A DNA stretch of 64,000 nt, from contig NC_043017.1 in assembly GCF_006345805.1 (NCBI RefSeq), positions 21,700,001-21,764,000 on the forward strand, written 5' to 3'. Positions 2,135 through 60,826 of the stretch are shown piece after piece. Position 1 is the stretch's first letter. Each line of letters opens with the position of its first letter. Source of the DNA: Octopus sinensis (Eukaryota). Position numbers and translations under genes: made by a program. The notes beneath the pieces were generated by a model. It was not told the origin of the DNA, ran no database searches, and saw only the letters and a list, made by a program, of their open reading frames with translations.

Positions 2135-2616
2135 GTACATACATATATACATACATAGATGCATGCAGAAAACTATCTTTCCTCCTATTTACACACACAC
2201 AACATACACACACATGTACCCTAGTAGTTGTGTGTGGATGTTTGTGTGTAAATGTGCATATAGATGCCTGCATATGCAATTTTCTTTTCACCTGCATTGC
2301 AATGTATGCACACATGTGCTGATAAGTAAACCCTAGTTCTATACACACACACACACACACATACGCGCATATCTACCTATCTTTCTATCTGTCTGTCTGT
2401 ATCTCTCAAACCTACAAGAGTAAATAAGAGAGACAGAGACAGGTAGAAACAAGGATTTGAATACTATGTAAATATTCTTTTCAAAAACTTTTCATTTAAT
2501 TTTTCCAAAATTTAATTGTTTTCCATTCTTACAGTTGAAAAAGTCTCAATAACTGAAACCAGTAATGAAACCGGTACTCAATGTCTGGAACTCAGAATCT
2601 TGGGGTTAGTATACCT

Positions 2617-2687
2617 GGGCATATGGTGTAGTGGTTAAGAGCACGGGCTACTAACCCCAAGATTCTGAGTTCGAATCTAGGCAATAA

Positions 2688-2765
<78 letters not shown>

Positions 2766-2803
2766 TAATAATAATAATTGATAATGATAATAATAATAAT
2801 AAC

Positions 2804-2834
<31 letters not shown>

Positions 2835-2985
2835 TCGAAAAATACCTTAGGAATGAGAACCCAAGTTCGAAATTTCCCTAAGACACCTGATGAAGGCTGG
2901 GGGGTATATCAGCTGAAATGTTGTGTTAACAACAAACAAGATGAGGACAAATATCTATCAAATGTAAATAATGTAAATAACGTAT
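2617..2985 (+). mobile_element. tRNA(Ser-like)-headed SINE with internal (AAT)n and hammerhead-bearing tail, copy 1
   Basis: A box tggtgtagtgg, anticodon-arm-like gggctactaaccc, B box gagttcgaatc, then (AAT)n, then gacac-CTGATGA-a-ggctg..cagct-GAAA-tg-tt-gtgtt; a homologous copy lies at 44581-44858. Confidence 0.85.
2882..2927 (+). ncRNA. Minimal type-I hammerhead ribozyme motif
   Basis: Stem I gacac/gtgtt, core CTGATGA 2887-2893, stem II ggctg/cagct, GAAA 2915-2918, stem III reduced to a 2-nt TG (ancestral CG inferred). Confidence 0.65.
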
Positions 2986-3219
2986 ATAAATATATATATA
3001 TGATATAATATAATATAATATAAATAATATATATATGCCTATATACATACATATATGTACATACCTATATATATATATATATGTATATATACATGCATAT
3101 ATGGGTACAGGACACCAAAAACACGTGAACAAAATGAGAAAGAAGACAGGCAACATCAAGAACATTCCCTTCATCTGTTGTTCCCTGTTTCATCTACTCC
3201 TCGTTTCAATATATATATA

Positions 3220-3250
<31 letters not shown>

Positions 3251-3496
3251 ATTTTGAATATATTTACCACCAGATAACTAAAATTATACTTGCTACTGAA
3301 GGGTTAAAATCATACCAAAACATTGGGTCTTGTGGTCTGCTGATGTTGCTTGCAGCTTGGGTTGATGTATTCTTTTTCAATATAAAATCTATTGAGAGAA
3401 ATTTTTCTCTGAAACAAATTCTTGCTGTGAGTGCATTTCCTGTTCTAATGTACAACAACATGTTAAGAATATATGCACACATCTCTATAAATGCAT

Positions 3497-3530
<34 letters not shown>

Positions 3531-3816
3531 CACAATGCATATTCATTAACTAATTGTAGTTATTGGACAGTCGTGGCTAGAGTTGATGCTGTGAAATTTA
3601 CTACTTCACTGGTATGTGTATTCTTCATCCTGTACAAAGGGAAACAATATCAGCCTCGGCGGGATTTCCATACAATATGCAAAAAGTCGTAGCAAATACC
3701 ATAAGGTATTTTGTCTAATACACTCACCAGTTTTATCATCAACCACATACTCATATACGTGCATGGTTAACATGTGTATATAAGATATATGTGTGTGTGT
3801 GTGTATTTGTGAATGG

Positions 3817-3859
<43 letters not shown>

Positions 3860-4444
3860 TATATATCTACAATTTATATGTATGCCTATGTGGATGTATA
3901 TATATATATATATATATACTCACATATTCATACACACACACACATATATATATAGTGCATTGTTTTATGAAACAATAACAGAAAAGAGAAGAGATATATG
4001 CTTGCATATATAGTGTGAGTATGTGTGTGTGTTTGTGTTTACACACACACACACACAAACACACACATACAAACACATATACACACACATACTTATGCAT
4101 GTACATACACATATAATATATATATACATACACACAAGAATATGCCTGCCTCTTCTCTTTTCGGTTGACGCTTTATTACCTGCAAGATCCTTTTGATGTC
4201 ATATCAACTCCCTGTTTCTCCCTATCATACGAGTGAGTGTATATACATGAGTATGAATATTTTGGTGTGTTTGTGTATCCACGTGTGCATGCATGCGTGT
4301 AAGCCCATTCGCATATTCTTGATGGTACATTCAGATAGCTAAATATATGTGCATGTGTGTGCATGTATGCATGTTGATGTATATGGATGGAACTGTATTT
4401 AAATACACATGCACAGATAAGATGAAAGGATTTAGAGACATGCT

Positions 4445-4873
4445 GGCACAGGCATGGCAGTGTGGCAAGAAGCTTGCTTCCCAACCACATGGTTCTGGGT
4501 TCAGTCCCACTGTGTGGCAATATGTGCAACTGTCTTCTGCTATAGCCTCAAGCTAACCAAAGCCCAGTGAGTGGACTTGGTAGGTGGAAACTGAACGAAG
4601 CCTGTCATATATATATGTGTATGTATGTATATTTCTGTGTGTATGTCTATGTGTCCGTGTTTGTCACCCCCCTCCACTGCTTGACAACTGGTGTTGGTGT
4701 GTTTATGCCCCTGTAACTAAGCAGTTCAGCAAAAGAGATTGATAGAATAAGTACTGGTCTTGAAAGAAAAATATAAGTACTGGGGTTGATATATTGGAAG
4801 AACAAAGAAAGAAAATTCTCCAAAGGGGTGCTCCAGCATGGTAACTGTCTAATGACTGAAACAAGTAAAAGAT
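4445..4873 (+). mobile_element. Octopus-type tRNA/CORE-like SINE (family A)
   Basis: Head ggcacaggcatggc..gggttcagtcccactg, internal GT microsatellite, tail ggtgctccagcatgg..tgactgaaacaagtaaaaga; more than 15 homologous copies in the window. Confidence 0.9.
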
Positions 4874-4916
4874 GTATGAATTAGACTTTAACTCGAATGT
4901 ATCTTCACTTGGACAG

Positions 4917-4948
<32 letters not shown>

Positions 4949-4969
4949 GCAAGCTTACAAATATACAAT

Positions 4970-5097
4970 ATTCTTTTCTAATCTAGGCAAAAGGCGCAAC
5001 ATTTTTGGGGAGCAGGGGCCAGTTGATTAGATCGATTCCAGTGCGCAACTGGTACTTAATTTATCGACCCCGAAAGGATGAAAGGCAACGTCGACCA
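4970..5097 (-). mobile_element. SINE family B fragment
   Basis: Reverse complement contains gcctttcatcctttcggggtcgataaattaagtaccagtt, the central domain shared by the family B copies. Confidence 0.85.
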
Positions 5098-5498
5098 TGG
5101 TAATAAACGAGTGAAGAACGAATATATAGTGTGTGTGTATTTGGCAAATAAAGAAAAAGATCATCCTGAAATATAACAATATGTTTCAACACAAATTCAT
5201 AAACATATGAATACACACACATACACATGCATATATATACACACATATATACATATATGTATATGAAGATATATATATATTTATATATATATATATTTAT
5301 TTATTTATATATATATATTTATCTATCTCTATATATATATATGTATATGAAGATATATATATATTTTTATATATATATATATATATATTTATTTATTTAT
5401 ATATATATGTATATGAAGATATATATATATATATTTTTATATATATATATATACTTATTATTTATATATATATGCATATGAAGATATATATATATATA

Positions 5499-5536
<38 letters not shown>

Positions 5537-5539
<3 letters not shown>

Positions 5540-5729
5540 CGGAGATGTACTTGCATAGCAAGTGATTTGATCTGAGATTGTGTGCTGGAATGAAAACAAT
5601 TGCAGCGTGGAAGGTGTTTGTAAGCCATTCAAGAAACACACAAAAGCCGTTCGATTCACTTCAACATTAAGTTTAATTTGTCAAAATATTTTCGTCGCTA
5701 TAAGACCGCGACCTGATCACTGACAAAAT
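5537..5729 (-). mobile_element. Short non-coding element with G3:C8-variant hammerhead, copy 1
   Basis: About 190 bp homologous to 36925-37124 (opposite strand); 3' end abuts (TA)n; HHR topology at 5677-5727. Confidence 0.8.
5677..5727 (-). ncRNA. Hammerhead-like motif with swapped core (GUGAUCA)
   Basis: Minus strand reads TTTGTCA GTGATCA G GTCGC ggtcttata GCGAC GAAA ATAT TT TGACAAA: 7-bp stem I, 5-bp stem II, palindromic stem III. Confidence 0.65.
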
Positions 5730-6603
5730 GGCATTCAATCAAATAATAATATATATATGCATATATGTGTGTGTGTATGCATATATGGGTACAGGACATC
5801 ACCAACAGTAAACAACAGGAAATACGAAAACAAATGAGTTCAATATGCAAATAACGAGAGAAACAAATAGAAAACAGGACAAGTAACATAAAGAACGACC
5901 CTTCATCAGTTGTTGATTGTCTATCTACTCCTCATTTCGAGCATATAACTACATGAATATTACCCCAGAAATTAGTAATTTTCTTAAGATACAGAAATAA
6001 TACAGATAATGAAATATCATTTGATTCCTTGTTAAGAGAATTTCAAATAGGAGATATCTTAATTGCTTTCTCCTACATGTTTGGTCTTGTAACTCCTATT
6101 AGTAAATGAAACACATGTAATGGTGAAGAAATAATACGAAAAACCTTTCCAATCTCTTCTTTTGATATGTGTGTTTGTGCGTGTGTATGTGTGTGTGTGT
6201 GTGTGTGTAAGTGTTGCAAAATATGTATAAATATAGATGATGTTATTATAAACATGATCTGATGTAGACACACATCTAATCAGCAACTAATCTAATAAAT
6301 ACTTTGGGGCTCCTGCCATTTCAGTTGCAGTCATGATTAGCCGAGGGTGAATCTTGAATAGATTGTCATTTCCTTGAAACGTACACACATGCATACACAC
6401 GCACACACAGACACACGTGCAAATACACACCCGCATATATAAATATATATGTATATATACATATAACTACATATATGTATAAATATATATACATGCCTTT
6501 ATTTCTCTGTGTGTGTGTGTGTGTGAGTCAACATCCTCGTTATCTTCATTGAACTAACTTACAATTACTTTATATCATTGAATAATCTCAAGATACACAA
6601 AAT

Positions 6604-6641
<38 letters not shown>

Positions 6642-6731
6642 CACGCATGCATATATAATATAACATTATATATATAGAATATAATATATATAATACATAC
6701 ACACATATATATATGTATATATGTATTCATG

Positions 6732-6767
<36 letters not shown>

Positions 6768-6839
6768 TGTCTATGTATGTATGTATGTATGTATATATAT
6801 ATATATGTGTGTATGTATGTATGTATGTATGTATGTATG

Positions 6840-6889
<50 letters not shown>

Positions 6890-7161
6890 TGTATGTATGT
6901 GTGTGTTGTGAAAAATTATGAATAGGAGATTCTACACATTTTTCAATGTTTATTACTTTTGCAACTTCTATCTTGATATGAAAAACGTGTAACATGGAAT
7001 TGGAAATCTACAAAATGTTCCAATCATCTGCTTAGATACACACACACATATATATGCACACACATATACACCCATCCATCCATACATACATACATACATC
7101 TACATGCACACACACACATATACACACAGATACAAGTACACGCACATGTATACATGCTGGC

Positions 7162-7204
<43 letters not shown>

Positions 7205-7212
7205 TATATATA

Positions 7213-7267
<55 letters not shown>

Positions 7268-7565
7268 AATGTGGTTTAATAGAAAAATGGAGATTAGAAA
7301 CAGTTGTGAGGCAGACAATATATCTTGCACTTTAAAGTTGACTTTGTTTTATCATTTAAGTTCAGATCCCACCAGGATAGGCCCTGCCTTTCAAATTCCT
7401 ACGGTCGATCGATAATATATATGCCAATCAAGTACACAGGATGGTTTAATTAATAATAACGATTCTACCCTGCTTCCTGGATCTTTGTTAGAAATCTATA
7501 TTTTAGGAATCAAATGGAAATTTAGGGAAAAGGTGAGGAGAAGGGGAAGTGAAGGAGAGATAAAA

Positions 7566-7616
<51 letters not shown>

Positions 7617-7809
7617 AATGAGTAGGAAGATAGGTTACGTGGGAGTAATAGGTTGGTTGGTGGGTGGGTGGGTGGGTTATAAACAAATACTTTGTGGTAG
7701 GAGTAAGACGATGGGAAGGAGTGGGAGGAAGCAGATGAAAGGAAGAAGGGCGAATCTGGTGAAAGAAGGTAAAAGGACACGGGTCATGTGGAGAAAGAGG
7801 GGGACGAAC

Positions 7810-8810
7810 ACACACATGCACACATATGCACACTTACGCACACATGCACACACACACACAGACACACATACACCTATGTGTGCACAGACATGTAAGCACA
7901 CAAACACATCATGTGTGCATGTGTTTAATACAAACATGCATTCTCACATGCATGTACACACACATACATACATGCATGCACACATACATAGTAACACATA
8001 TACATACATATGCACATAAACACATACATACATATGTACAACAGGCACACTCATAGATAGCACGCACATTCATACACAACACACACACGCACACACACAC
8101 ATATTCACTCATGGACAACACACACACCCATCAATAAACATGTGTACACAACATGCACACTGATACACACACATATACACAGCACACACACATTCATCTA
8201 CATAAGAACACATGCACATATGCACATGTATGTGCATACACATGCACACATACATGCATGCACAATTTACATGTAAACACATTCGTGCACATAAGTGCAT
8301 ACGCATGCATGCACACATGCAGAGATGTGCACAGTAAATACAGATGCATGACACACCACACATGCATAACACACACATAGCAAAATGGGCACTCACACAC
8401 AGGTACACTTGCATACACAAATATGCATGCACACACATGTATCCATATACACACATGCACATACATATATGTATATAAGCATGTACAACACATATATGCA
8501 TAATACACACATATACATGCTTACACATATGCATGCACATGCACACACACCTCACACACACACATATATATATAAACACACACATGCAAAACGCACACAA
8601 ACACACACACACAAAGATACACATGCACACAACACACACACATGCACACAACACACACACATGCACACAACACACACACATGCACACAACACACACACAT
8701 GCACACAACATGCACACAACACACACACATGCAAACAACACACACACATGCAAACAACACACACACACTTTCACATACATACTCATGCACACACACACAC
8801 ACACACACAA
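7810..8810. repeat. (CA)n-derived microsatellite/minisatellite field
   Basis: CA/CATG repeats including ~17-bp units cacaacacacacacatg at ~8625-8765. Confidence 0.9.
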
Positions 8811-9627
8811 AGCAATAGGAGGAAAGGGAAGAGAGAGGTTAAACAGAAATACCAGGGAGGGTGTGAAAGAAACAGACATGAATGAAAGAGGGGGCAAAGT
8901 GACAAGTAGTTGTTTTGACAAGGAGAGGAAAGATTTGGACCCAGGGTGGGGATAGAAATTAAGATGGTGGGAGGAGATTGGGAAACAGAAGTGGGAGGAG
9001 ATTATATGAAAGATACGAATCAGGAGGATTCTAGATCAGCAAAGAAAAGACGCAGAGTTTGTTGCTGTTGTTGTTTAACCCTAGGTAAGGCTTGATTGAG
9101 AAAACCTTTGATGAGACTATTTTAGGTACAATCATCAGAAACTTTTAATTTCCCAGGCCTAATAGAACCTCGGTTATGACATCCTGTGTACTGCTCTTTT
9201 TAAAGAGAAACAAGATAGGATTTGAGAAGGGTTTTGCTGCTATTTCTCGCAATTCTATTTGACCTTGTAGAAGCAGGTTCTCTTCATGGGTTGAGGAAAA
9301 TAAGAGGGGGAGTGGTTAATACAAGTAGGAGGGTAAAGTGTCCCAAGTGAAATTGAGAAAGGGGACATAGACTGGTTAGGGAAATAAGGATTAGGGTTGT
9401 AGAATTAGGGGGTAATAAGAAGGAGAGAAAGTGCAAGTAAGATTATACATGCATATCTATCTATTTACATATATACATATATATATATATTCTTTTACCT
9501 TTTATTTGTTTCAGTCATTTCACTGTGGCCATGCTGGAGCACTACCTTTCGTCAAGCAAATCAACTCCATTCTTTGTAAGCCTAGTCCTCATTCTATCAG
9601 TTGCTTATATATATATGTGTGTGTGTG

Positions 9628-9749: not shown

Positions 9750-9817
9750 TGCGTCGGCCGGGAGTCGAACCCAGATCAACTGCATGGAAGGCAACCATGC
9801 TAACCGTTACACACACC
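9750..9817 (-). pseudogene. tRNA-Gly(TCC) pseudogene / SINE head
   Basis: Minus strand GGTGTGTGTAACGGTTAGCATGGTTGCCTTCCATGCAGTTGATCTGGGTTCGACTCCCGGCCGACGCA matches metazoan tRNA-Gly(TCC) as I recall it. The first ~5 nt of the acceptor stem are replaced by (TA)n; a T6 tract follows 9 nt downstream (9735-9740). Confidence 0.85.
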
Positions 9818-9892
9818 TATATATATATATACATAATATATATAATATGTATATATATATATATATATACATACATATATATATTATATATA

Positions 9893-11029: not shown

Positions 11030-11073
11030 GGGACCTTGAAGACTACTTTAATGCAAGAAAGTATACTAGTCCC
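11030..11073 (+). ncRNA. Degenerate minimal hammerhead-like motif
   Basis: GGGAC cTTGAAGA ctactttaatgcaa GAAA GTATAC TA GTCCC: stem I GGGAC/GTCCC and palindromic stem III; stem II is decayed. Confidence 0.4.
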
Positions 11074-11284: not shown

Positions 11285-11600
11285 ATATGGTGGTTGTCTA
11301 CTCCTTATGCAAAGTTTGACCACCTCCTGTATGGCATCTGATGTGACTTTTTAAACCAGACAATGTTCTGAAAAGACACACCCATAGATTGCATATTCGA
11401 TATGGACCACCAAGAGTTGCAGATAAGTTCTCATTTTTGTAGATCTTAAAATGTCTTTTGAGTTCTCCGTTAGATTTGCAAACCTTCTGGCATGCATTGC
11501 ACTGAAAGGTGTGCACAAACATATAGGCAGAATAGTTGGTGGAGGTTCGTTTTCCATGGGTGTGCAAATGAGATTTGAGCCCTGCAAAAATAAAGGCATG
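11285..11600 (-). pseudogene. Degenerate C2H2 zinc-finger fragment, probably the 3' end of a LINE ORF
   Basis: FQCNACQKVCKSNGELKRHF and CNLWVCLFRTLSGLKSHIRCH, plus AGLKSHLHTH; no splice or start context, and GLKSH-type fingers are typical of some RTE-clade C-termini. Confidence 0.55.
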
Positions 11601-11630
11601 GTCTATCACAAATTGTGCATATATATATGA

Positions 11631-12110
11631 GATAGTATGTTGTCAACTTAATGTGATTGTCCCATGAAAGGGAAGAATGCTACCATTATTTAGCCCTAGG
11701 ACACACCGTTTCCTGTCGAACTTGACACATTTCCTGTGTCTTTATGTTTTCAAAGTGGAGACAAGCATCTCCACCCAGCAAAGCCAGCATCCAGAGACTA
11801 GTTTCAGGGTCATTGCTCATCATCAGTCTGGAGTAGCATGGCTTGCTAGCTGTCGATGCCTATCTGCCTCTGAAAACATATATATTTCAAGTGAAATATA
11901 TTCATCGATTTTTTTGAAAATAGAAATAATACATTGTAACATAAGTATACGGTAAATGTGTCAAGTCCAACAGGAAACGGTGTTTCCTAGGGCTAAATAA
12001 CAGTATCATTCTTCCCTTTCATGGGACTGTCATATAAGTTGACAACATACTATCAACTTTATCATGCTGCTACTGCATAAATCTCTCTGAGAGATTTAGA
12101 AATGTATTAT
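11631..12110 (-). mobile_element. Fold-back element with long inverted arms and central hammerhead, copy 1
   Basis: Arms gatagtatgttgtcaactta...ttgacacattt (11631-11732) pair with aaatgtgtcaag...taagttgacaacatactatc (11954-12054); homologous to 60472-60826. Confidence 0.85.
11790..11832 (-). ncRNA. Minimal hammerhead motif (canonical core)
   Basis: Minus strand TCCAGA CTGATGA tgagcaatgaccct GAAA CTAG TC TCTGGA. Confidence 0.65.
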
Positions 12111-12375
12111 TCATATATATATATATAAAATTTATATGGCTGACAGTTTACAATGTTTTACCAAAAAGGAAAACTATTATTGTCACTAAATATGCCAAGG
12201 GTGTTAGACACACCTACATTGCTAGAAATAAGAGCTGAAATGCTCTAATGCTGTAGTCAAAGCACATATTTGCACACTGACAGCAATTATAATCATCCAA
12301 CAACATCATTTGAGAATTCCATACACTGACATCAGATCGGCAATTTTCATATATATATATTAATACTCATAAATA

Positions 12376-12547
12376 GGTGCAGGAGTGGCTGTGTGGTAAG
12401 TAGCTTGCTTACCAGCCACATGATTCCAGGTTCAGTCCCACTGCCTGGCACCTTGGGCAAGTGTCTTCTACTATAGCTTTGGGCCAACCAAATCCTTGTG
12501 AGTGGATTTGGTAGACGGAAACTGAAAGAAGCCCCTCATATATATGA

Positions 12548-12618
<71 letters not shown>

Positions 12619-12803
12619 CTTGTGCATTTGTGTTTGTCGCCCCAACATCGCTTGACAACTGATGGTAGTGTGTTTATGTTCCCGTAATTTAGTGGTTCAG
12701 CAAAAAGAGACCGATATACTAAAAACCATAGCAGAAACACCCAGACCATTCAAGTGAAAGCAGTGCTCCAGCATGGCCTTAGCCACCATGATGGTTAAAA
12801 CAA
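12376..12803 (+). mobile_element. SINE family A
   Basis: Head ggtgcaggagtggctgtgtggtaag, CORE-like ccttgggcaagtg, tail gtgctccagcatggcc. Confidence 0.9.
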
Positions 12804-16015: not shown

Positions 16016-17095
16016 AGCTGGCAGAATTGATAGAAAATTGTAAAATGTGCTGTATATTAATTTTTTCTGGCTCTTTATATTCTGAGCTCAAATCCTACAG
16101 GTGTCTTTCATCCCACAAGGGGCAATAAAATGAGCTATTTTAACTTTTTCTGGCTCTATATTCTGAGCTCAAATCCTGCTGGTGACTTTTAACCCTTTAA
16201 GGGGCAATAAAATGAGCCATATTAATTTTTTCTGGCTCTTTATATTCTGAGCTCAAATTCTGCTGGTATCTTTCATCCCACAAGGGGCAATAAAATGAGC
16301 TATATTAATTTTTTCTGGCTCTTTATATTCTGAGCTCAAATCCTGCTGGTGTCGTTCATCCCTTAAGGGGCAATAAAATGAGCCATATTAATTTTTTCTG
16401 GCTCTTTATATTCTGAGCTCAAATTCTGCTGGTATCTTTCATCCCACAAGGGGCAATAAAATGAGCTATATTAATTTTTTCTGGCTCTTTATATTCTGAG
16501 CTCAAATCCTGCTGGTGTCGTTCATCCCTTAAGGGGCAATAAAATGAGCCATATTAATTTTTTCTGGCTCTTTATATTCTGAGTTCAAATCCTGCTGGTG
16601 TCTTTCATCCCTTAAGGGGCAATAAAATGAGCTATATTAATTTTTTCTGGCTCTATATTCTGAGTTCAAATCCTGCTGGTGTCTTTCATCCCTCAAGGGG
16701 CAATAAAATGAGCTATATTAATTTTTTCTGGCACTATATTCTGAGTTCAAATCCTGCTGGTGTCTTTCATCCCTTAAGGGGCAATAAAATGAGCTATATT
16801 AATTTTTTCTGGCACTATATTCTGAGTTCAAATCCTGCTGGTGTCTTTCATCCCTTAAGGGGCAATAAAATGAGCTATATTAATTTTTTCTGGCACTATA
16901 TTCTAAGTTCAAATCCTGCTGGTGTCTTTCATCCCTTAAGGGGCAATAAAATGAGCTATATTAATTTTTTCTGGCTCTATATTCTGAGTTCAAATCCTGC
17001 TGGTGTCTTTCATCCCTTAAGGGGCAATAAAATGAGCTTGATGTAAATGATTTCCCGTCTAAACTTCTGGCTTTGTGCTTAAATCAGAAACAATT
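16016..17095 (+). repeat. 12-unit 81-83 bp tandem array amplified inside a family B SINE
   Basis: caataaaatgag recurs at 16123, 16205, 16288, 16371, 16454, 16537, 16620, 16701, 16782, 16863, 16944 and 17025; the SINE head agctggcagaat precedes the array and the SINE tail ctggctttgtgcttaaatcagaaacaatt follows it. Confidence 0.95.
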
Positions 17096-19991: not shown

Positions 19992-20137
19992 GTTATACGA
20001 ATGCCTTTTTTACCCAACTTATGGATTTTTAAATGACTTACACACACACACTGACTTACACACACACCCACACATGTGTGTGTGTGTGTAAGTCATTTAA
20101 AAATCCATAAGTTGGGTAAAAAAGGCATTCGTATAAC
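19992..20137. repeat. Perfect ~60-bp inverted repeat with short spacer
   Basis: gttatacgaatgcc..aaatgacttacacacacacac (19992-20051) is the exact reverse complement of 20078-20137. Confidence 0.95.
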
Positions 20138-20151: not shown

Positions 20152-20367
20152 ATACATTACCTGAAGTGTACAGCATTATATGTCCATTACTGCAGATCTT
20201 CCTAATTGGTTTCCGACCAGGGATTCCATATCGGCTACCTCTGATGAGTACAAGGTTACATAATTGGATTGTTACCTAACGCTCTGTTGAATCCCTGGCA
20301 CAAAACCAATTGGTGAGTTCGGCCAACCGTACTGTATATATAATACTGTACACTTCAGATAATATAT
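20152..20367 (+). mobile_element. TIR-bounded element with a degenerate internal hammerhead core
   Basis: 30-bp inverted ends (20152-20181 / 20338-20367, 3 C/T mismatches); CTGATGA at 20241, decayed stem II gtacaagg/cctggcac, then aaaa-ccaattgg. Confidence 0.65.
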
Positions 20368-20505: not shown

Positions 20506-20552
20506 ATATATATATATATATATATACTATATAAAATATATATATATATAAA

Positions 20553-20750
20553 GTTAATCCAAACAAGAAAGCACAAAAAAACACAACAACGCTAGGACGT
20601 GGAACAAATATAGTATTATTGGATGCTCAGGAAAGAAGGAGGGTTTAACGTTTCGAGCGGAGCTCTTCGTCGGAAACATAGGAGAAGGAAAGATCCAGAG
20701 AGGGAAGACAGAGGAAAAAAAATCGCCAACGGTACAGACGAGGTCACATT
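20553..20750 (-). mobile_element. Short element with hammerhead motif (U4C core)
   Basis: Minus strand 20677-20643 reads GTTT CCGACGA A GAGC tcc GCTC GAAA CG TT AAAC; the 3' end abuts (TA)n. Confidence 0.7.
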
Positions 20751-21990
20751 TATATATATATATGTATAGTTCAAATTTATAGAAGACAAAATACAAAGAC
20801 AGACATGGGAACAAGTAAGTGTATTAGTTTGACACTTGAGAAGAATGTTAAAGTCATTGATGTTTCAAGTATATACCCTTCAACAGAGAGGATTGAGAGT
20901 ATTAAAAAATGGAGAGGGAACATAAAAAAAGAGGAGAGAGAAAAAAATTGTTGGGAATAACAGTTTAACATGTTGAAAATGTGTGTATATATATATATAT
21001 GTATAATAAATATATAGACAGCCAATAATATAAGTGTGTGTCTGTGATCATTCCAAGGTGTATCTCATGGATACACCTTATATTTCTGGGGTCTTAGAGG
21101 ATTTCTGATTTTTCAACATCAGATGCTCCTCAAACCTGATAGCCTTGTTGGTCACGTGGTCATGTGATATTATTTCCCAGTGTCTTTAAATATGGGTTTA
21201 GTCACTTCTAATAATTTGGTGGCTGCTAACCTCTGAAGAACCAAAACAAACTTTGGACATCACAACCTCCATTCTGATGGTGGATGATTTCATGCAATTT
21301 CATCTTTTCCATTTGCAGTCCGCAAACCCCAGACATATCTAAGTTTCATATTTAATGACGCTGTTACAGAAATGAGAAATTAATTAATGTAGAATACAAT
21401 TATGTATATTATATAACTAATTAAACATTTATGAACGAAATGAACACGTATTTACACAGCTCATTTGTCAATAAACGAACGCATAATATGAATCAATGAA
21501 CAATACTGAAAATCAAATAATAATAATAATAATAATAACAATATTATCATTATTATTATTATTATTATGATTATTATTATTATTATATTATTATTATTAT
21601 TAATATTATTATTGCTATATTATATTCTAGTCATGTCCTGATATTCAATTTGGTGGCAGAAGCAAACGTAACTGTTTCCTGAATCTCATGTATAACACAG
21701 CCACTTCACAAAAAGCCTGTGCAGAATTTACAATCATTTTGAAGCAGACAACGATATGTTATATAATGCAATGGTAAGCTTCATTTTGCCAGGCCTTCCC
21801 GGTATAGATAAAAGCATTAGTCTTTGTTCATATATACTGAGTCCCTGTTTGTGTGTAAAGGATCTTCCTAATAATCCCTTGAAGTAATCATGTCATGTAT
21901 TTAAACATAGCCACCTAACAATCCGTAAGTTAGAAAGAAACAGGCATTCATATATTTGTCAACAGAGTGGGTATATTAATCTTTATTCTC

Positions 21991-22119
21991 TATAGTATCA
22001 TAGATCCATTTCAGCCTATTTTACATCTGATGAGTACTGTTTTTTGCTGTCATCTAGTTATGTAATTTGTATGTGAAACCATTTCGTAAAATCAGCTGAA
22101 ATAGATCTGTAATACTGTA
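21991..22119 (+). mobile_element. Hairpin element with degenerate hammerhead core
   Basis: Arms tatagtatcatagatccatttcagcctattttac / gtaaaatcagctgaaatagatctgtaatactgta enclose CTGATGA (22027) and GAAA (22075). Confidence 0.55.
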
Positions 22120-27864: not shown

Positions 27865-27987
27865 TAGTTGAAATTTACAGAAAAACAAAAGACAAAGACA
27901 GGTGTATAAACAACAAGCAGGTGTATTAGTTTGATGTTCAGGAAGGTGAGAAAGTCTTTTATGTTTCAAGCCTATGCTCTTTAACAC
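27865..27987 (-). mobile_element. Truncated copy of the A6U-hammerhead element
   Basis: Reverse complement matches 42995-43116 (gagcataggct.gaaac.taaaagactttctcaccttcctga..); the 3' end abuts (TA)n. Confidence 0.75.
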
Positions 27988-34489: not shown

Positions 34490-34998
34490 ATCACTCATCA
34501 TTATCATTGTTTGACCGTGGTCGAGACAATGGAATTTACCATGCTACGCCAGACTTCACGGTCCATCATGGCATTACGGAGGTCCTGTTGCTGGATGCCT
34601 GTATCCCTGGGGATTACATCAGGGTAGGTGACTGTGCGCCCTCTGGTATTGCAAGTAGATGGCTTCCAGAGGAGAAGAGTAGAAATTGCCTCGTTTTCAG
34701 CTCTACAACAATGTCCAGAAAATTGGACTCTCCTACCTTTCACAAGAGATAGTACAGGTGGTAGTTTCCCATATATTTGCATTTTGGTTGGATGGCGCTT
34801 CCACGAGAGATTTTGAGCTCTCATAAGGAGGCGAGTGTAGGTTCCATCCAATCGCCTCTCAAGCTTCTTTGATAACGTCCAGGTTTCTGAGCCATATAGT
34901 AGAATTGGTTCGACTGTGGTTTTGAAGATTTCAAGTTTGAAGTCTCTACTTAGATTTGATGACCAGATCTTATGCATGTCATTACAGGCTGACCAGGC
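34490..34998 (-). pseudogene. 5'-truncated RTE-type LINE, ORF2 C-terminus
   Basis: 157-aa ORF with PILLYGSETWTLSKKLERRLDGTYTRLLMRAQNLSW and GHCCR..LLLWKP..MMDREVWR motifs; the stop is followed by a (TGA)-like tail. Confidence 0.9.
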
Positions 34999-36917: not shown

Positions 36918-37311
36918 GTATGCAGCACGGATTTTTGTCAGTGAACAGGTCGCTGTCTTAAAGTGATGAAAATATTTTGACAAATTAAGCTTAAATGTTG
37001 AAGTGAATTGAACGGCTTTTGTGTGTTTCTTAAATGGCTTACAAACACCTTCACGCTGCAATTGTTTTCGTTTCAGCACACGTTCTCAGATCAAATCACT
37101 TGCTATGCATGTACATCTCCGTAATATATATATATATATGCATGTATGTATGTATATATGATGGGCATCTTTCAGTTTCTGTCAACCAAGTCCACTCACA
37201 AGGCTTTGGTTGATCCAAGGCTATAGCAGAAGATACATGACTAAGGTGCCATGCAGTGGGACTGAACCAGGAACCATGTAGTTTGGAAGCAAGCTTTTTA
37301 CCACACAGCCT
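36607..37311 (-). mobile_element. SINE family A split by a nested hammerhead element
   Basis: Tail 36607-36830 and head 37160-37311 are separated by (TA)n containing the insert 36925-37124. Confidence 0.85.
36925..37124 (+). mobile_element. Short element with G3:C8-variant hammerhead, copy 2
   Basis: 36934-36984 reads TTTGTCA GTGAACA G GTCGC tgtcttaaa GTGAT GAAA ATAT TT TGACAAA; homologous to 5537-5729. Confidence 0.8.
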
Positions 37312-38304: not shown

Positions 38305-38363
38305 ACACACACACACATAAATATATATACACATATATATATGATTAATATATATTGGCTAAA

Positions 38364-38730
38364 CAACAACATGGTTCCGGGTTCAGTCCCACTGCATGGC
38401 ACCTTGGGCAAGTGTCTTCTACTATAGCCTCGGGATGACCAAAGCCTTGTGAGTGGATTTGGTAGACGGAAACTGAAAGAAGCCTGTCGTATATATGTAT
38501 ATATATATATGTGTGTGTGAGTTTGTGTGTCTGTGTTTGTCCCCCCAACATTGCTTGGTGGTGTGTTTACGTCCCCGTAACTTAGCGGTTCAGCAAAAGA
38601 GACCGATAGAATAAGTACTAGGCTTACGAAGAATAAGTCCTGGGGCCGATTTCCTCGACTAAAGGTGGTGCACCAGCATGGCCGCAGTCAAATGACTGAA
38701 ACAAGTAAAAGAGTATAAAAATAAAAGAGT
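38364..38730 (+). mobile_element. SINE family A (5'-truncated)
   Basis: acatggttccgggttcagtcccactg through tgactgaaacaagtaaaagag. Confidence 0.92.
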
Positions 38731-40624: not shown

Positions 40625-40714
40625 GCTAACAGCCATATCACGTTTAAAGCCGGCCCTCATTTGATCACCAGAGTTAAGCAACGTCAAGCCTTGTAAGCAC
40701 TTAGATTGGTGACT
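40625..40714 (+). pseudogene. 5S rRNA-derived sequence (3'-truncated)
   Basis: gctaacagccatatcacgtttaaagc..tgatcaccagagttaagcaacgtc..acttagattggtgac aligns with 5S rRNA nt ~1-90, including box A (AGTTAAGC) and a box C-like segment. Confidence 0.85.
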
Positions 40715-41099
40715 ACTTGTTTCAGTCATTACACAGTGGCCATGCTGGAGCACCACCTTTTAGTCGAGCAAATTGACACCAGGATTTATTCTTTGTAAGC
40801 CTTGTACTTATTCTATCGGTCTCTTTTGCCGAACCACTAAGTTACAGGGACGTAAACACACCAGCATCGGTTGTCAAGCGATGTTGGGGGGACAAACACA
40901 GACACACAAACATATACACACACATATATATATATACATATATATGATGGGCTTCTTTCAGTTTCTGCCAACCATATCCACTCACAAGGCTTTGGTCGGC
41001 CCGAGGCTATAGTAGAAGACACTTGCCCAAGGTGCCATGCAGTGGGACTGAACCCGGAACCATGTGGTTCCTAAGCAAGAAAATTACCACACAGCCACT
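40715..41099 (-). mobile_element. Full-length SINE family A
   Basis: Reverse complement of the family A consensus. Confidence 0.92.
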
Positions 41100-41687
41100 T
41101 GATAATTTTTTTTTTGTTGCTATCTTACAGTGACATAAACACACCAATACTGGTTCTCAAGTAGTAGTGGGGGACAAATATATAGATGAAAATAATTTAT
41201 TTTTAACCCCTGACTTTAAATTAGAAAAAAAGCTATGAATAACACCATATAAATAAATTGTTTTGGAAAGAAAAAGACAAAGGTTGCTCATATCCAAAAA
41301 TGGGTTTTTAACCAATTATTTATATTTATTTATATCGTTTCAATTATTTCAAGCTCCCTCAAGGTTTCTAAATTCTAACTATATATGCATATACATACAC
41401 ACAAACACACATACATACAAATATATGTAGATGCACATGCACAAATATATATGTCGATGTACACGTGCATGCACATAGTGGTGTTGAGATAACAAAATGT
41501 TTCGGTGTACGATATCAGCTCTTATAATTGATATTGTACAATGAATTATCTTGCTCTTTTGTATTAATTTCCAGTCTTCACACAATAACTCAACTCTGAA
41601 TAATTCCTAAATGGCCACTGATAATATGACATAGCAGCAATACACACACACACACATGCACATACGTATGCATATATACACACACAG

Positions 41688-42934: not shown

Positions 42935-42954
42935 TGACTGCTAGCTTCAAAAGC

Positions 42955-43116
42955 TTTTTTTATTCTCTCTCTGTTTATTTCCTCATGTTTCTTTCTGTTG
43001 AAGAGCATAGGCTCGAAACGTAAAAGACTTTCTCACCTTCCTGAGCATTAAACTATACACCTGTTTGTTGTTTATACATCTGTCTTCGTCATTTGTTTTT
43101 CTGTAAATTTCAACTA
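42955..43116 (+). mobile_element. Short element with hammerhead motif (A6U core)
   Basis: 42990-43027 reads TCTTT CTGTTGA A GAGC atag GCTC GAAA CG TA AAAGA; relatives at 27865-27987(-) and ~20770-20900(-). Confidence 0.7.
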
Positions 43117-44110: not shown

Positions 44111-44580
44111 GTATAAAAAGATTAAGGGCTGCAACACTCCGGTGCTCCAGATGGCTTTAATAATCAACAGATGACAGAATGCAGAATTCGACTAATGAAA
44201 ATCTTTGCTGTGACCTCCCACTTTTGGTTAATGCTGTGGTGGATGCTCCCAGGCAAGAAGTGAGCTGGTCCACTACTAATAAACAGTGGACTGATACAAT
44301 CAGTAAGGGCAGTCGGCGAAGGTACACCGTTCGGACCAGTCCCATAGAGATGACATAATACATTGGCATCATGGGATATATCAGTGGTGACAAAGGTTCG
44401 GACAATATCGCCATTGGGACATATCAGTTAACAAGGTAGGAAGGTGACAGCTGAAACAACTTGCTGGATAGAGACTGAAATACCCAGAGTAACTTTCCTG
44501 CAAAGTCATCACCTTGGAATGATCCATGAGTTGAAGTCTTGGTGTCTTTTGAAACTGTTCGGGACTATGCCATATGCCCA

Positions 44581-44858
44581 GGGACATATGGCATAGTGGT
44601 TAAGAGTGCGGACTACTAACCCCAAGATTCCGAGTTCGATTCCAGGTAGTGACCTGAATAATAATAATGATGATAATAATAATAATAATAGTAATAATGA
44701 TAATAATAACAACAACATCGCCCCAAGACACCTGATGAAGGCTGGAATGTATATCAGATGAAACATTGGGTTAACAACAAACAAGATGAAGACAAATATC
44801 TGTCAAATGAAAATAATGTAAATATGGTACATAATTCCTCATTTCTTAAATATAGAAC
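44581..44858 (+). mobile_element. tRNA(Ser-like)-headed SINE with (AAT)n and hammerhead tail, copy 2
   Basis: Homologous to 2617-2985; HHR at 44727-44772 reads gacac CTGATGA a ggctg..cagat GAAA ca tt gggtt. Confidence 0.85.
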
Positions 44859-45295
44859 AGGAAATTAAGTGTTTTTGTTCAAGAACACAGTGCATCACCC
44901 TGTCCAGGAAATGAAACCACAATCTTACGATCATGAGTCCAACGCACTAAGCATTAAGCCACCAAATATATTTACAACTCAGTCATGAGACTTAGAGAAA
45001 ACAACAAGAAAATAAAATAAAAAAAGACAGAAAATAAAACCGAAATCAATGTTTCTTAGGATGAATACAGAATAATTGTAAGTAATATCATGTTTCCACT
45101 TGAAAACAGTTGTAGTCTATGGCTGATCCTGGACAGTATCGGATAAAATAGCATATTATTTTCTATCACGTGAACTCTAAACATATTTCACTGGCCTACA
45201 TCTGATATCTATCTAGCTATCTATCTATCTATCTATCTATCTACCCATTTATCTATCTATCTATATATTTATATGTATATAAATATGTATATATC

Positions 45296-49259: not shown

Positions 49260-49952
49260 ATGTATGTATGTATGTATACACACACACACACACACACATA
49301 TATATAGGTGTGTGTGTATCTATACACAGGCATCTACATGCATTTATATGTGAGAGAGAGAAATAATGGTGGATATTTCTGTAGATTATATATATAATTT
49401 TCTCTGGCTATGTCTATAAATGAAGTATATGTGCGTATGTGTATATATACACACACACACACACACACATTCAGACAGGCGTTCACAAGAGGTTGGCTGG
49501 CAATACATAATTAGTCTTTCGTTATCTTTTTTTTTGGTTAGTTACATCGCATTTTACCTTTAATAATACATCACAATATATTTTTATGTTGTGTTTTCTT
49601 TTGATATTTACTCAGTTTTTCATTTTTTGCTTTTGTTTATAGCCAATATTTTTTTTTTGTCCTCAGCCTTTACAGAACATTTCCATACATTTTATAGTAT
49701 CACGTTATGTTATTTTTCGTGTAACTTCAATAGTACACTATGTTCCACTGGTTAAGATAATTAGTAATATTTTTTCCTATTGTTTTCCCTGATTATATTT
49801 ATTTGTCCGTTTTTCTCTGTTCTAATTTGGTCATTTTCTTTATATATATATATATATTATATATATATATATATACACGTACATACATATATGCAGAGAT
49901 ATAGACATGAATACATGCATAACATACATATATACATACACACACACATATC

Positions 49953-49995
<43 letters not shown>

Positions 49996-50590
49996 ATGTA
50001 TGTATGTATGTATACACACACACACACACACACATATATATAGGTGTGTGTGTATCTATACACAGGCATCTACATGCATTTATATGTGAGAGAGAGAAAT
50101 AATGGTGGATATTTCTGTAGATTATATATATAATTTTCTCTGGCTATGTCTATAAATGAAGTATATGTGCGTATGTGTATATATATACACACACACACAC
50201 ACATTCAGACAGGCGTTCACAAGAGGTTGGCTGGCAATACATAATTAGTCTTTCGTTATCTTTTTTTTTTTGTTAGTTACATCGCATTTTACCTTTAATA
50301 ATACATCACAATTTTTTTTTATGTTGTGTTTTCTTTTGATATTTACTCAGTTTTTCATTTTTTGCTTTTGTTTATAGCCAATATTTTTTTTTTGTCCTCA
50401 GCCTTTACAGAACATTTCCATACATTTTATAGTATCACGTTATGTTATTTTTCGTGTAACTTCAATAGTACACTATGTTCCACTGGTTAAGATAATTAGT
50501 AATATTTTTTCCTATTGTTTTCCCTGATTATATTTATTTGTCCGTTTTTCTCTGTTCTAATTTGGTCATTTTCTTTATATATATATATAT
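49110..50590. repeat. Near-identical ~736-bp tandem duplication bounded by (TA)n
   Basis: acgtacatac at 49141 and 49877; tcattttctt at 49831 and 50566; differences are mostly homopolymer or microsatellite lengths. Confidence 0.95.
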
Positions 50591-57964: not shown

Positions 57965-57998
<34 letters not shown>

Positions 57999-58063
57999 CA
58001 CACACACACACACACATACACACACACATACATACATATATATATATATAGATATATATATGC

Positions 58064-58113
<50 letters not shown>

Positions 58114-58350
58114 ATGTATACATATATATAAGCATGTCTTTGTATGTGTGAATCTTCGTGCTTGTGTCTGTCTCTTGATAACTGGTGGTGGTTTGTTTAT
58201 ATCCCAATAAATTAGTGTTTCAGCTAAAGAGACTGAGACTCGAAAATAAAATAAGTACCGGGGCGGGGGTCAGTTCGTTCAACTAAAACCATTCCAGACA
58301 GTGCTCCAGCATGGCTGCACTGAATGACTGGAAGAGATGAGAGATAAAGA
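57471..58350 (+). mobile_element. Family A SINE with three tandem heads
   Basis: The head unit (..ctgtg..taag..gggttca.tcccac..aaact..agaagcc) starts at ~57471, ~57640 and ~57808; a single tail lies at 58150-58350. Confidence 0.8.
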
Positions 58351-58980
58351 TAAATAGAGACATGAGTATTTCTTCATTTGATGTCTCCAAAGACAAGATG
58401 TCAGTTGAATTAGAAAAACATTTTGGTTTCTATTTAAGAATGTCTGAGATTTTGGAATAAAATTGTCCTAGTACATGATGAATATCTTAGTATATACACA
58501 AACATACATGTGTATGTGTGTGTATGTGTGTGTGTGTGTTGTGTGTGTGTGTATGTATACATATATATAAGCATGTCTTTGTATGTGTGAATCTTCGTGC
58601 TTGTGTCTGTCTCTTGATAACTGGTGGTGGTTTGTTTATATCCCAATAAATTAGTGTTTCAGCTAAAGAGACTGAGACTCGAAAATAAAATAAGTACCGG
58701 GGCGGGGGTCAGTTCGTTCAACTAAAACCATTCCAGACAGTGCTCCAGCATGGCTGCACTGAATGACTGGAAGAGATGAGAGATAAAGATAAATAGAGAC
58801 ATGAGTATTTCTTCATTTGATGTCTCCAAAGACAAGATGTCAGTTGAATTAGAAAAACATTTTGGTTTCTATTAAGAATGTCTGAGATTTTGGAATAAAA
58901 TTGTCCTAGTACATGATGAATATCTTAGTATATACACAAACATACATGTGTATGTGTGTGTATGTGTGTGTGTGTGTGTG
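58090..58980. repeat. Near-identical ~439-bp tandem duplication bounded by (GT)n
   Basis: agcatgtctttg at 58131 and 58570; one 1-nt indel in the unique part. Confidence 0.95.
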
Positions 58981-59661
58981 TTTATTATGTTTTGTGATTT
59001 TTATGAAACTACATAAAAATGGTTCTTTTTGAAATTATTAAAACATCTTTAAAATTTATTTATATATTTAGTGGTAAGTCTATGTTTTAACCTGATTCTT
59101 ACATATATGTGTTTTTAGATCTAAACAAATTATATTCCATACATACACACAAAGCTACTAAACTATACACCCATGCATACACACAGACATACATTCTTAA
59201 ACGTTTGTGTTTGCTTACACACACATGGATATACATATATATTTCAGTTGATAGATAGCTATGTATATACATATGCATATAAAAATGTATATACATTGTT
59301 GTATATTTGATTATGTATATTTACATATATGTACATAAATGTCTACATAATTTATCTATATGGTTATGTATATATGAATATGTACATGAGCAGGTGTATT
59401 GATCTAGCTTGCACAACATCGCTCTACACTTAAACTACATATATGAATTATATAGACCTTATATGTATATGTATATATGTATATAAACATCATCACCATA
59501 TATATATCTATATATATGTGTGTGTGTATACATATATGTACATATGTATGTACGTATGTATGTATGTATGTATGTGTATGTATTATATATATGTATGTAT
59601 GTATATATATATATATATATATATGTAGGTATATATGTATATATGTATATTTATATGTATG

Positions 59662-59696
<35 letters not shown>

Positions 59697-59707
59697 GTTT
59701 GTATATA

Positions 59708-59738
<31 letters not shown>

Positions 59739-60162
59739 GTGTGTGCGTGCGTGCGTGCATACGTGTGTGTGTAGTAATTTAATTGGACAGATGCTGCAAA
59801 AATTTAAAGATCAGTTTTAGCAATGGGTTAAAGTTTATTTTCTGTCTGCAGTGACAACATCAGCAATCTATCAGGAATCTGGGATAAAGAAGAAAAAACC
59901 GTTTTGAACAAATGACTTTTGACTCGACTCTCATGTTGTTACATAGATCTATGTGTGATGTTTTGATATTTATGTGGATTTTAACATACATGTATGCATA
60001 GACATAGAATTGCATGTATATATATATATGTATTCAGGAATAGGCTATTAGTATATATAACGGCTGCAGTTTTATATATTTACACACACATATGCATGTG
60101 TGTGTGTGTGTGTACATATATATATATCATCATCATCATCATCATCATGATATATATGCACG

Positions 60163-60415
60163 TAAGTGCCGGTGGCACATAAAAAGCACCATCCGTTCGT
60201 GGCCGTTTGCCAGCTCTGTCTGGCACCTGTGTGGGTGGCACGTAAAAAGCACCCACTACACTCACGGAGTGGTTGGCGTTAGGAAGGGCATCCAGCCGTA
60301 GAAACACTGCCAGATTTGACTGGGCCTGGTGCAGCCTTCTGGCTTCACAGACCCCAGTAGAACCGTCCAACCCATGCTAGCATGGAAAACGGACGCTAAA
60401 CGATGATGATGATGA

Positions 60416-60420
<5 letters not shown>
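60163..60420 (+). mobile_element. Family C element 3' end
   Basis: gtgccggtggcacataaaaagcacc..gaagggcatccagcc..ctaaacgatgatgat. Confidence 0.9.
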
Positions 60421-60468
<48 letters not shown>

Positions 60469-60471
60469 AGT

Positions 60472-60826
60472 ATTACATTTCTAAATATCTCAGGGAGATA
60501 TAAACAGCAGTGGTATGATAGAGTCAACTTAATGTGACAGTCCCATAAAGGGAATCAAACTACTGCTATTTAACCCTAGGAAGCATTAATGCTTCCTGTC
60601 AGTCTTGACACATTTCCTGTGTCCTTATGTTTACAAGGCCTAGACAAGCATCTCCAACTACCAGGCCATGCTACTCCAGACTGATGACAAGCAAGACTCA
60701 GAAACTAGTCTCTGGATGTAGGCTTAGCTGGGTGGGGGTGCTTGTCTCCCCCTTGTAAACATAAGGACACAGGAAATGTGTCAAGGCTGACAGGAAGCGT
60801 TGATGCTTCCTAGGGCTAAATAGCAT
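60472..60826 (+). mobile_element. Fold-back element with central hammerhead, copy 2
   Basis: Arms 60565-60667 / 60721-60825; 60675-60716 reads TCCAGA CTGATGA caagcaagactca GAAA CTAG TC TCTGGA. Confidence 0.85.

Follow-up and report, generated by a model that had tools for sequence, protein, structure and literature searches.

Minimal hammerhead folds in short repeats of Octopus sinensis: likely solo pseudo-LTRs of Penelope-like elements, one family with a G3-C8 core

The presence of many decayed minimal hammerhead ribozymes derived from Penelope-like elements (PLEs) in an animal genome is known. Metazoan genomes hold thousands of single minimal motifs, whose activity is low in dimeric form too (Cervera and de la Pena 2014, PMC4209133). 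Insertion does not depend on these hammerheads in the only active PLE system, Poseidon of Anolis carolinensis (Frangieh et al. 2024, PMC11167929). Among cephalopods, a repeat survey of Octopus vulgaris reports 31 recently active PLE families, and the words hammerhead and ribozyme are absent from the available portion of its text (PMC13282606); the giant squid genome paper reports 235 Rfam hammerheads. Here we analysed 64,000 nucleotides of Octopus sinensis (assembly GCF_006345805.1, contig NC_043017.1, forward-strand positions 21,700,001 to 21,764,000; hereafter the window), in which an initial annotation made from the sequence alone had described a dense set of minimal hammerhead elements.

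We hold it to be quite probable that these motifs are minimal hammerhead folds carried by short repeats, that the repeats are solo pseudo-long terminal repeats (pseudo-LTRs) of several PLE families, and that one of them, family B, represents the product of internally started reverse transcription at (TA)n (Table 1). What appears to be novel is a natural G3-C8 core, in what is likely a very high-copy animal PLE family, together with family A, a candidate transfer RNA-headed repeat mobilised by PLEs. Like the motifs of PMC4209133, those of the window have a short stem I, an extra base after A9, a G10.1-C11.1 pair and a palindromic stem III, and they are mostly single and scattered, in many families tied to truncated PLEs. 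Unlike them, family B reads G3-C8, whereas the core covariation described in that study is U3-A8, also named by Perreault et al. (PMC3088659). None of the 56 rows in Figure S3 of PMC4209133, which contain no cephalopod, reads G3-C8, A6U or U4C. The largest counts in the same study are about 4,000-9,000 per genome, and the density observed here would suggest ten times more.

Motifs were identified with a descriptor comprising stem I, a seven-base core, stem II, GAAA, a self-complementary stem III and UH in type-I order, tolerating any Watson-Crick 3-8 pair plus one core mismatch; 300 block-wise dinucleotide shuffles of the window served as the control. Five sites matched, against a shuffle mean of 0.147 and a maximum of 2, and no shuffle reached five (0/300), so that the motifs are more frequent than in dinucleotide-shuffled sequence. 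The reversed window gave no match. All eight sites first listed as complete hammerheads exist, with core position 3 at 2887+, 5720-, 11826-, 20673-, 36941+, 42995+, 44732+ and 60681+ (the coordinates originally given mark a stem end), but only five of them (2887, 5720, 20673, 36941 and 42995) retain both stems and pass the full descriptor, and only one of those five has a canonical core. A Watson-Crick 3-8 pair is present at all five intact sites, whose cores read CUGANGA once (2887), GUGANCA with G3-C8 twice, CCGACGA (U4C) once and CUGUUGA (A6U) once. The canonical core with both stems was thus found once, and in 1 of 300 shuffles; the G3-C8 descriptor alone returned two sites versus 0.007 in shuffles. 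Sites 11826 and 60681 have a canonical core and, besides a CTAG palindrome, a stem I of 6 bp, but their stem II is broken (1 and 0 closing pairs, respectively), an arrangement found twice versus a shuffle mean of 0.003; a canonical core with broken stem II also occurs at 44732.

Among five further sites regarded at first as decayed versions, 27950 and 11030 were confirmed, 22027 is borderline, and 2532 and 20241 could not be confirmed; one decayed copy, the divergent member of family D, had been overlooked. The 64 kb therefore contain five intact folds and five to six credible decayed ones. In the 11030 motif, stem I is G+C-rich and 5 bp long, an additional base precedes the core, the palindrome is GTATAC and stem II is broken; a relaxed descriptor with a 6-nt palindrome found it once, with 0 of 300 shuffles matching. 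Reading site 2532 as a U3-A8 motif was rejected (its stem I breaks off after 2 pairs, no descriptor is passed and there is no second copy). Site 20241, a CTGATGA within a long fold-back, was likewise rejected for want of a GAAA box.

Chance matches in AT-rich repeats are, in our judgement, scarcely credible as the source of these sites. As the descriptors were written after the sites had been seen, and copies of one repeat do not count as independent, the shuffles make the sites look somewhat more significant than they are; the Rfam scan of the window at gathering score and two targeted Rfam scans found no hammerhead, none appears among the 150 of 605 matches listed from a relaxed E-value scan (mostly microsatellite matches), and sites 2532 and 20241 fail. 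Against this stand the shuffled and reversed controls and the position of the family B motif just before a PLE ORF (open reading frame) start, where PLE hammerheads have been published. For families A to E, the descriptor-versus-shuffle counts together with the protein homology of family B refute a chance origin.

Repeat families were defined within the window by self-BLAST after masking of simple repeats (about 14,300 of 64,000 bases) and by nhmmer, giving A (two copies), B (two), C (two), D (three) and E (one, a distant relative of D), plus single motifs. Several of these families are distinct, as initially stated, but they are not all unrelated, since D and E match each other at an E-value of 3e-5. 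Hammerhead copies of the same family lie 15 to 49 kb apart, except the divergent D copy and E, which are neighbours. The (TA)n runs said to terminate several elements are present but flank many elements on both sides, so that they are better read as target than as tail, and we rejected the latter interpretation.

Table 1. Hammerhead-bearing repeats and related features of the window (positions are those of the 64,000-nt stretch)
Feature	Position	Strand	Basis or remark
Family A, copy 1	2617..2985	+	tRNA-like head 2617-2691 (A-box-like 2624, B-box-like 2669), (AAT)n 2692-2833, hammerhead tail
Minimal hammerhead fold of A copy 1, canonical CUGAUGA (C3 2887)	2882..2927	+	No other canonical fold keeps both stems
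Inverted 24-nt duplicate of head bases 2649-2672, head-to-head with A copy 1	2588..2611	-	24/24 matches
Family A, copy 2: tRNA-like head 44582-44656, (AAT)n, decayed hammerhead (C3 44732)	44582..44860	+	88% over 85 bp to 2887
Family B, copy 1, solo pseudo-LTR lacking ~13 nt of the family 5' end, (TA)n at 3' end	5538..5729	-	92% over 192 bp to copy 2
Minimal type-I hammerhead fold of B copy 1, G3-C8 core	5677..5727	-	Descriptor; stems I and II present in the lowest-energy fold (z -2.6)
PLE ORF codons 1-31	5536..5628	-	From 55 nt past predicted cut to element 3' end
Family B, copy 2, complete, with a (TA)n run on either side	36920..37125	+	ATG 37034, then 1-nt deletion
Minimal hammerhead fold of B copy 2, G3-C8 core (G3 36941)	36934..36984	+	Descriptor; z -2.8
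Family C, copy 1: inverted arms round hammerhead-like centre 11790-11832 (C3 11826)	11631..12110	-	Stem II broken
Family C, copy 2: inverted arms round centre 60675-60716 (C3 60681)	60471..60829	+	Arms 77% over 279 bp; stem II broken
Family D copy with hammerhead 42990-43027, core CUGUUGA (A6U)	42935..43114	+	Descriptor
Family D copy, decayed, 5' end cut inside core (site 27950)	27867..27987	-	92% over 120 bp to 42996-43114
Family D copy, divergent, decayed	20769..20900	-	nhmmer E 9.8e-7
Family E with hammerhead 20643-20677, core CCGACGA (U4C)	20548..20755	-	Descriptor and nhmmer; (TA)n both sides
Decayed hammerhead-like motif, single copy in window	11030..11073	+	Relaxed descriptor
Fold-back with CTGATGA at centre (20241)	20158..20361	+	No GAAA box; not confirmed as hammerhead
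Fold-back with CTGATGA (22027) and GAAA	22000..22112	+	2-nt register offset, no palindrome; borderline

Both copies of family B share one layout, in which the hammerhead is followed by 55-56 nt, an ATG, 31 codons and (TA)n. The copy 1 hammerhead has G3 at 5720 and C8 at 5715, a 7-bp stem I, a 5-bp stem II closed by G10.1-C11.1, an extra base after A9, an ATAT palindrome and a predicted cut after U17 at 5684; the 7-bp stem I fixes the G3-C8 register. Two C-to-T changes in stem II of copy 2 leave G-U pairs.

The 31-residue frame of copy 1 yielded a single match among 1.84 billion representatives, an uncharacterised Octopus bimaculoides protein aligned from residues 1-26 to 1-26 (E 3e-4). This protein in turn matches O. 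sinensis XP_029654200.2 and overlapping O. vulgaris fragments, and the start of XP_029654200.2 is identical to copy 1 at 27/30 residues and to copy 2 at 22/24. One of the O. vulgaris fragments matches 29 unnamed proteins of 680-1222 aa (best, 195/473 identical), which carry YVDD (29/29), YGLRKDHK (28/29) and Cx2-5CxxC (25/29, one of these inside the nuclease). Among 29 aligned members, comprising 27 of the long proteins and two octopus proteins, Pfam detected RVT_1 in five and GIY-YIG in four, with the reverse transcriptase (RT) before the nuclease. By these alignments, the family B pseudo-LTR appears to run into the start of an ORF whose relatives bear a telomerase-like RT, with a GIY-YIG domain at the C terminus, so that the PLE origin proposed initially is shown for family B by protein homology. 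Compared with the non-autonomous element initially proposed, family B is probably more simply a solo pseudo-LTR of an autonomous PLE, and only family A is built as a true non-autonomous element. The initial annotation mentions neither the G3-C8 exchange nor the ORF start of family B, nor the tRNA-like head of family A.

The domain order of RT, Cx2-5CxxC linker and GIY-YIG, together with (TA)n targets, resembles that of Neptune and Nematis, endonuclease-positive (EN+) PLEs in which a (TA)n targeting bias is tied to the linker (Craig et al., 10.1101/2021.04.23.441226). The likeness is one of domain order, the linker is known from the relatives only, and, unlike in Neptune and Nematis, DKG reads DKSG. 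The relatives of family B differ from Penelope and Poseidon, which are without the zinc-finger linker.

Searches of viral, metagenome and prokaryote collections found no octopus PLE locus, and viral contigs and phages contained no related locus. Two related loci do occur in prokaryote assemblies, on contigs of bacterial metagenome-assembled genomes (L007 11-2683 and L008 4001-4861), and are probably contaminating animal host DNA; a GC hairpin near 2545-2575 of L007 resembles a decayed motif and fails the descriptor. In the PDB, one relative had no match and a profile gave one weak match, a bacterial RT (E 5.8e-5). For the longer protein, the Atlas returned unnamed clusters rich in rotifers at 0.96-0.97, and for the short protein nothing useful. 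The DNA patterns of families A and B had no match in viral contigs and six unrelated, AT-rich matches in metagenomes, and none of 31 matches to the G3-C8 pattern in viral contigs passed the descriptor.

To follow the G3-C8 core across organisms, we aligned contigs of four sequencing runs (organism labels A, B, C and E) to 5545-6160 at 80% likeness; the family B stretch itself occurs in runs of five organism labels, with no RNA run listed among them, which has no bearing on expression. Among changes listed at 8% or more, the sole G>C place is 6123, in three runs, with none in the fourth. As no G>C at 5715 is among the variants listed, C8 shows no reversion in any of the four runs, representing four organism labels. 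Reversion of G3 would read as C>G at 5720, and three of the four runs list no C>G change. Inside the motif, the variants listed affect loop II at two positions and stem I at one, where the change still allows a U-G pair.

These observations bear on whether the variant cores (G3-C8, A6U and U4C) are dead relics that drifted to fixation in a master element, with 3-8 complementarity arising by chance, a view that we consider possible but improbable. It draws support from the Anolis PLE, whose insertion in vitro is unaffected by hammerhead mutants (PMC11167929), from Naiad PLEs, which reportedly spread without hammerheads, from the uncompensated A6U of family D in copies retaining the site, and from Xenopus retrozyme dimers, 8 of 9 of which remained uncleaved (10.64898/2026.07.22.740005). 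In family B, however, both partners of the tertiary pair are exchanged while the rest of the core, the G10.1-C11.1 pair, the palindrome and the two stems are preserved, and its C8 is unreverted among the variants listed in four organisms. For the cores of families D and E, low activity has been reported for an A6 change and reduced activity for U4C (Perreault et al., PMC3088659). The engineered counterpart of family B also argues against dead relics: G3-C8 has been described as an engineered variant (PMC3884650; PMC11167929), and in the Anolis hammerhead, which needs protein to cleave, C3G/G8C partly restores cleavage lost in the single mutants (PMC11167929). The G3-C8 core of family B is predicted to keep the 3-8 tertiary pair and hence to cleave slowly, either in dimeric form or helped by the protein of the element. 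The literature searched contains G3-C8 as an engineered variant only, with no natural example, and no octopus hammerhead; Lunse, Weinberg and Breaker 2017 or Arkhipova et al. 2017 may contain either.

In all four runs, loose contig ends at 5728-5729 continue with an identical stretch of 13 letters, which agrees with the start of copy 2, and then disperse; this indicates that most sampled B copies begin about 13 nt before stem I. Opposite-strand contig joints from 5635, 5645, 5668 and 5697 to 5728-5729, each at single-locus depth, show inverted truncated B copies set head-to-head. Go-back joints, corresponding to partial head-to-tail tandems, also occur at single-locus depth, and the two window copies have neither inverted nor tandem truncated pieces. 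Contig loose ends at 5668 further reveal a divergent B subfamily with an apparently different 3' strand of stem II.

This structure parallels Poseidon, in which the hammerhead lies at the pseudo-LTR/ORF junction, the target is AT-rich, the copy ends about 100 nt inside the ORF and the whole uncut motif is inserted; in that system, RT starts 111-118 nt inside the ORF and uncut RNA is the main template (PMC11167929). The two differ in that Poseidon has its ATG inside the motif and a C3-G8 core, whereas the family B ATG lies 55-56 nt past the cut and the copy ends at about +93. Penelope of Adineta vaga offers a second parallel, its pseudo-LTRs including the first 12-22 codons and occurring as inverted head-to-head copies, with one-sided tails and as solo pseudo-LTRs (PMC3846280).

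By analogy with the Anolis study (PMC11167929), from which internal RT start, uncut template and protein-assisted cleavage are carried over, the element enzyme would nick (TA)n DNA, and reverse transcription would start internally near codon 31 (ORF base 93) on uncut RNA. Copying would then run back to the RNA 5' end, the RNA being taken to start in the pseudo-LTR, with a predicted product of 205 bp holding the whole motif, which is what family B is. The scattered single copies are predicted to be silent, and most are likely decaying. For solo pseudo-LTRs in Adineta, an origin by recombination or deletion has been suggested (PMC3846280), which may be an alternative route to the B solo copies. 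Hammerhead cleavage as the maker of the element ends was rejected, as the cut site is internal.

The same geometry bears on the non-LTR retrozymes, in which tandem transcripts would be cut to monomers, circularised and re-inserted. Such elements are short non-coding repeats with type-I hammerheads, kin to PLE pseudo-LTRs (PMC7229834; 10.64898/2026.07.22.740005), and the window likewise has type-I motifs with a palindromic stem III in 120-480 bp non-coding repeats, and contigs show a small number of single-locus head-to-tail joints. Retrozymes are, however, defined by tandem canonical motifs and circular RNAs, whereas the window has no tandem hammerhead copies, its elements hold the whole uncut motif without starting or ending at the cut site, and family B ends in a PLE ORF start. 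The one tandem array of the window, 16041-17038, has no hammerhead match. The retrozyme-like character initially suggested was accordingly not borne out, and we regard this origin as very unlikely. As an observation in its own right, the array comprises about 12 units of 81-83 bp, the younger units being 98-99% alike, with a B-box-like piece.

Beyond the solo pseudo-LTR reading favoured here for family B, family A presents a different architecture. Its 75-bp tRNA-like head is followed by (AAT)n and a hammerhead tail, head and tail occurring only together (head then tail in 2/2, tail preceded by head in 2/2) with a junction common to both copies, while 9 of the 11 (AAT)n arrays have neither. 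Both heads contain A- and B-box-like motifs, neither copy has a four-T run before the hammerhead, and ARAGORN and Rfam did not call the head a transfer RNA (tRNA); a weak third head match lies at 53854 (E 0.03). The 2887 hammerhead holds G-U pairs from a C-to-T change. Each copy is preceded by its own inverted duplicate of the head, that of copy 2 being 13 nt long (44564-44576, a duplicate of the head start, 13/13 matches); 2/2000 control windows scored as high for copy 1 and 18/2000 for copy 2, and none of the nine other elements has such a duplicate. These copy-specific duplicates suggest that head and tail were moved together in a PLE-type insertion. Family A is possibly a Penelope-mobilised tRNA short interspersed element (SINE), a candidate represented by two copies; a tRNA SINE with a PLE tail was not found in the literature searched.

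A similar structure is that of the schistosome SM-alpha and Sj-alpha elements, which likewise join an RNA polymerase III-type head to a type-I hammerhead (PMC6765202, PMC8490949). SM-alpha has a canonical active motif and forms tandems, whereas in family A the motif is minimal and of PLE type, (AAT)n lies internally, the copies are single and inverted duplicates occur at the 5' side.

Family A is also the best fit to the proposal that the short elements are true non-autonomous retroelements with their own internal promoter, re-inserted in trans by PLE enzymes. This is a serious contender that we rate somewhat below an even chance; it may hold for family B too, given the common 5' end and very high depth of the latter, and it is favoured by the joint occurrence of head and tail, the box-like motifs without an intervening four-T run, and the copy-specific duplicates. 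Yet only two A copies are at hand, the head is not called a tRNA, and the tail has no PLE protein link. A PLE nuclease preferring ATT (PMC11167929) could have inserted twice behind a SINE (AAT)n tail, or one head-tail chimera could have been copied by a long interspersed element (LINE). The boldest combination, a working natural G3-C8 hammerhead in one Neptune-type lineage at tens of thousands of loci plus a tRNA-headed SINE copied by Penelope-type machinery, seems to us doubtful.

For families A, C and D/E and the 11030 motif, we infer a PLE origin from their build alone. In family C, copy 1 has one arm about 55 nt longer than the other and (TA)n on both sides. The inner 30 nt of the arms group by side (25/30 for left-left and right-right versus 19-22 across), whereas the outer 56 nt group by copy (50/56 within each copy versus 41-45 of 53 between). 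This dual pattern, with the one longer arm, fits an inverted pseudo-LTR with a one-sided tail, so that inverted arms and a one-sided extension support the initially proposed PLE origin for family C as well. A head-to-head inverted copy is thus found for C and A, and not for D/E. Within the four-copy D/E alignment, stem II is paired in 16/16 cells.

Several observations weigh against the interpretation of these repeats as PLE-derived, conserved hammerhead folds. On the protein side, all Pfam RT and GIY-YIG scores fall below curated cut-offs, and the PLE link of family B is a chain of overlapping proteins with no full-length octopus PLE in one piece: the octopus fragments end before the region of the Cx2-5CxxC linker seen in relatives, and XP_029654200.2 runs on into a methyltransferase domain, likely as a gene-model chimera, or exonisation, joining a PLE N-terminus to a methyltransferase. 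The hammerhead descriptor matched neither L007, including its 370-bp tail, nor L008; tblastn with 33 proteins of one PLE lineage linked no other window family to PLEs; and the open frame of family A matched only a WD40 gene model at E 0.9. On the RNA side, the stems of the two B copies differ only by C-to-T, wobble-compatible changes with no compensatory change, the D/E alignment has one pair changed on both sides with 139/500 shuffles as high, and folding z-scores are modest overall, from -0.5 to -2.8 (five motifs other than those of family B at -0.5 to -1.6). The active-type dimer was not the lowest-energy form in dimer cofolding, but this calculation ignores tertiary contacts and carries no weight here. 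In the contigs, core-bin depth is 6-16% of that of the next bin and run X1 has two C>G places without location; with a further 15 variant rows outside the listing, copies with other cores could be under-counted. Summed contig depth over B, 0.2 to 3.2 million versus 3 to 69 for single contigs, is moreover no copy number.

Were the window typical, two B copies per 64 kb would scale up to about 90,000 for a genome of 2.8 Gb (genome size derived from PMC13282606), and the contig depth ratio and window density together place the family B copy number likely at 10^4-10^5. Scans based on CUGANGA would overlook a motif that may rank among the most common ribozyme-shaped ones of octopus DNA. The double exchange at positions 3 and 8, fixed across several species, would represent natural evidence of selection on the catalytic fold, and the fixed ends of family B are consistent with the model of internal initiation, for which the family provides a large set of products. 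Should family A be a PLE-mobilised SINE, some of the many unclassified octopus SINE families (893 of 900 recently active ones; PMC13282606) may rely on a partner other than a LINE.

The window as a whole has a G+C content of 28-41%, and the closest protein matches of one of its frames are Octopus proteins at 83-92% identity. The only gene called is a tRNA-Gly(TCC) at 9751-9821 minus, between (TA)n runs (ARAGORN and Rfam; Rfam gathering-score interval 9758-9812). For the flanks of the elements, tblastn and a scan of ten stop-free frames yielded LINE-like remnants only. A 164-codon frame with DUF6451 lies at 34504-34998 minus, which we take to resemble the C-terminal part of an RTE-type LINE, and a frame with C2H2 zinc-finger matches at 11298-11642 minus, directly behind C copy 1, is likely a LINE end.

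Two fold-backs, 20158-20361 and 22000-22112, have CTGATGAGTAC at the centre and similar arm ends, resembling the build of family C without a complete motif; a near-perfect inverted repeat whose loop holds (CA)n/(GT)n, 19992-20137, adjoins the former. A high-depth repeat, family F, occurs at 5787-5944 minus, with contigs extending past 5944, and at 3103-3210 minus. It carries the GAAA box first and CTGATGA about 25 nt later, the reverse of type-I order, and no closing stems were found. SINE-like repeats without an internal hammerhead are abundant (for example, 4445-4880, 12371-12722, 38358-38725 and 40714-41100), with up to 17 overlapping self-matches, and a 540-bp block is tandemly duplicated at 49299-49840 and 50035-50575 with microsatellite spacers.

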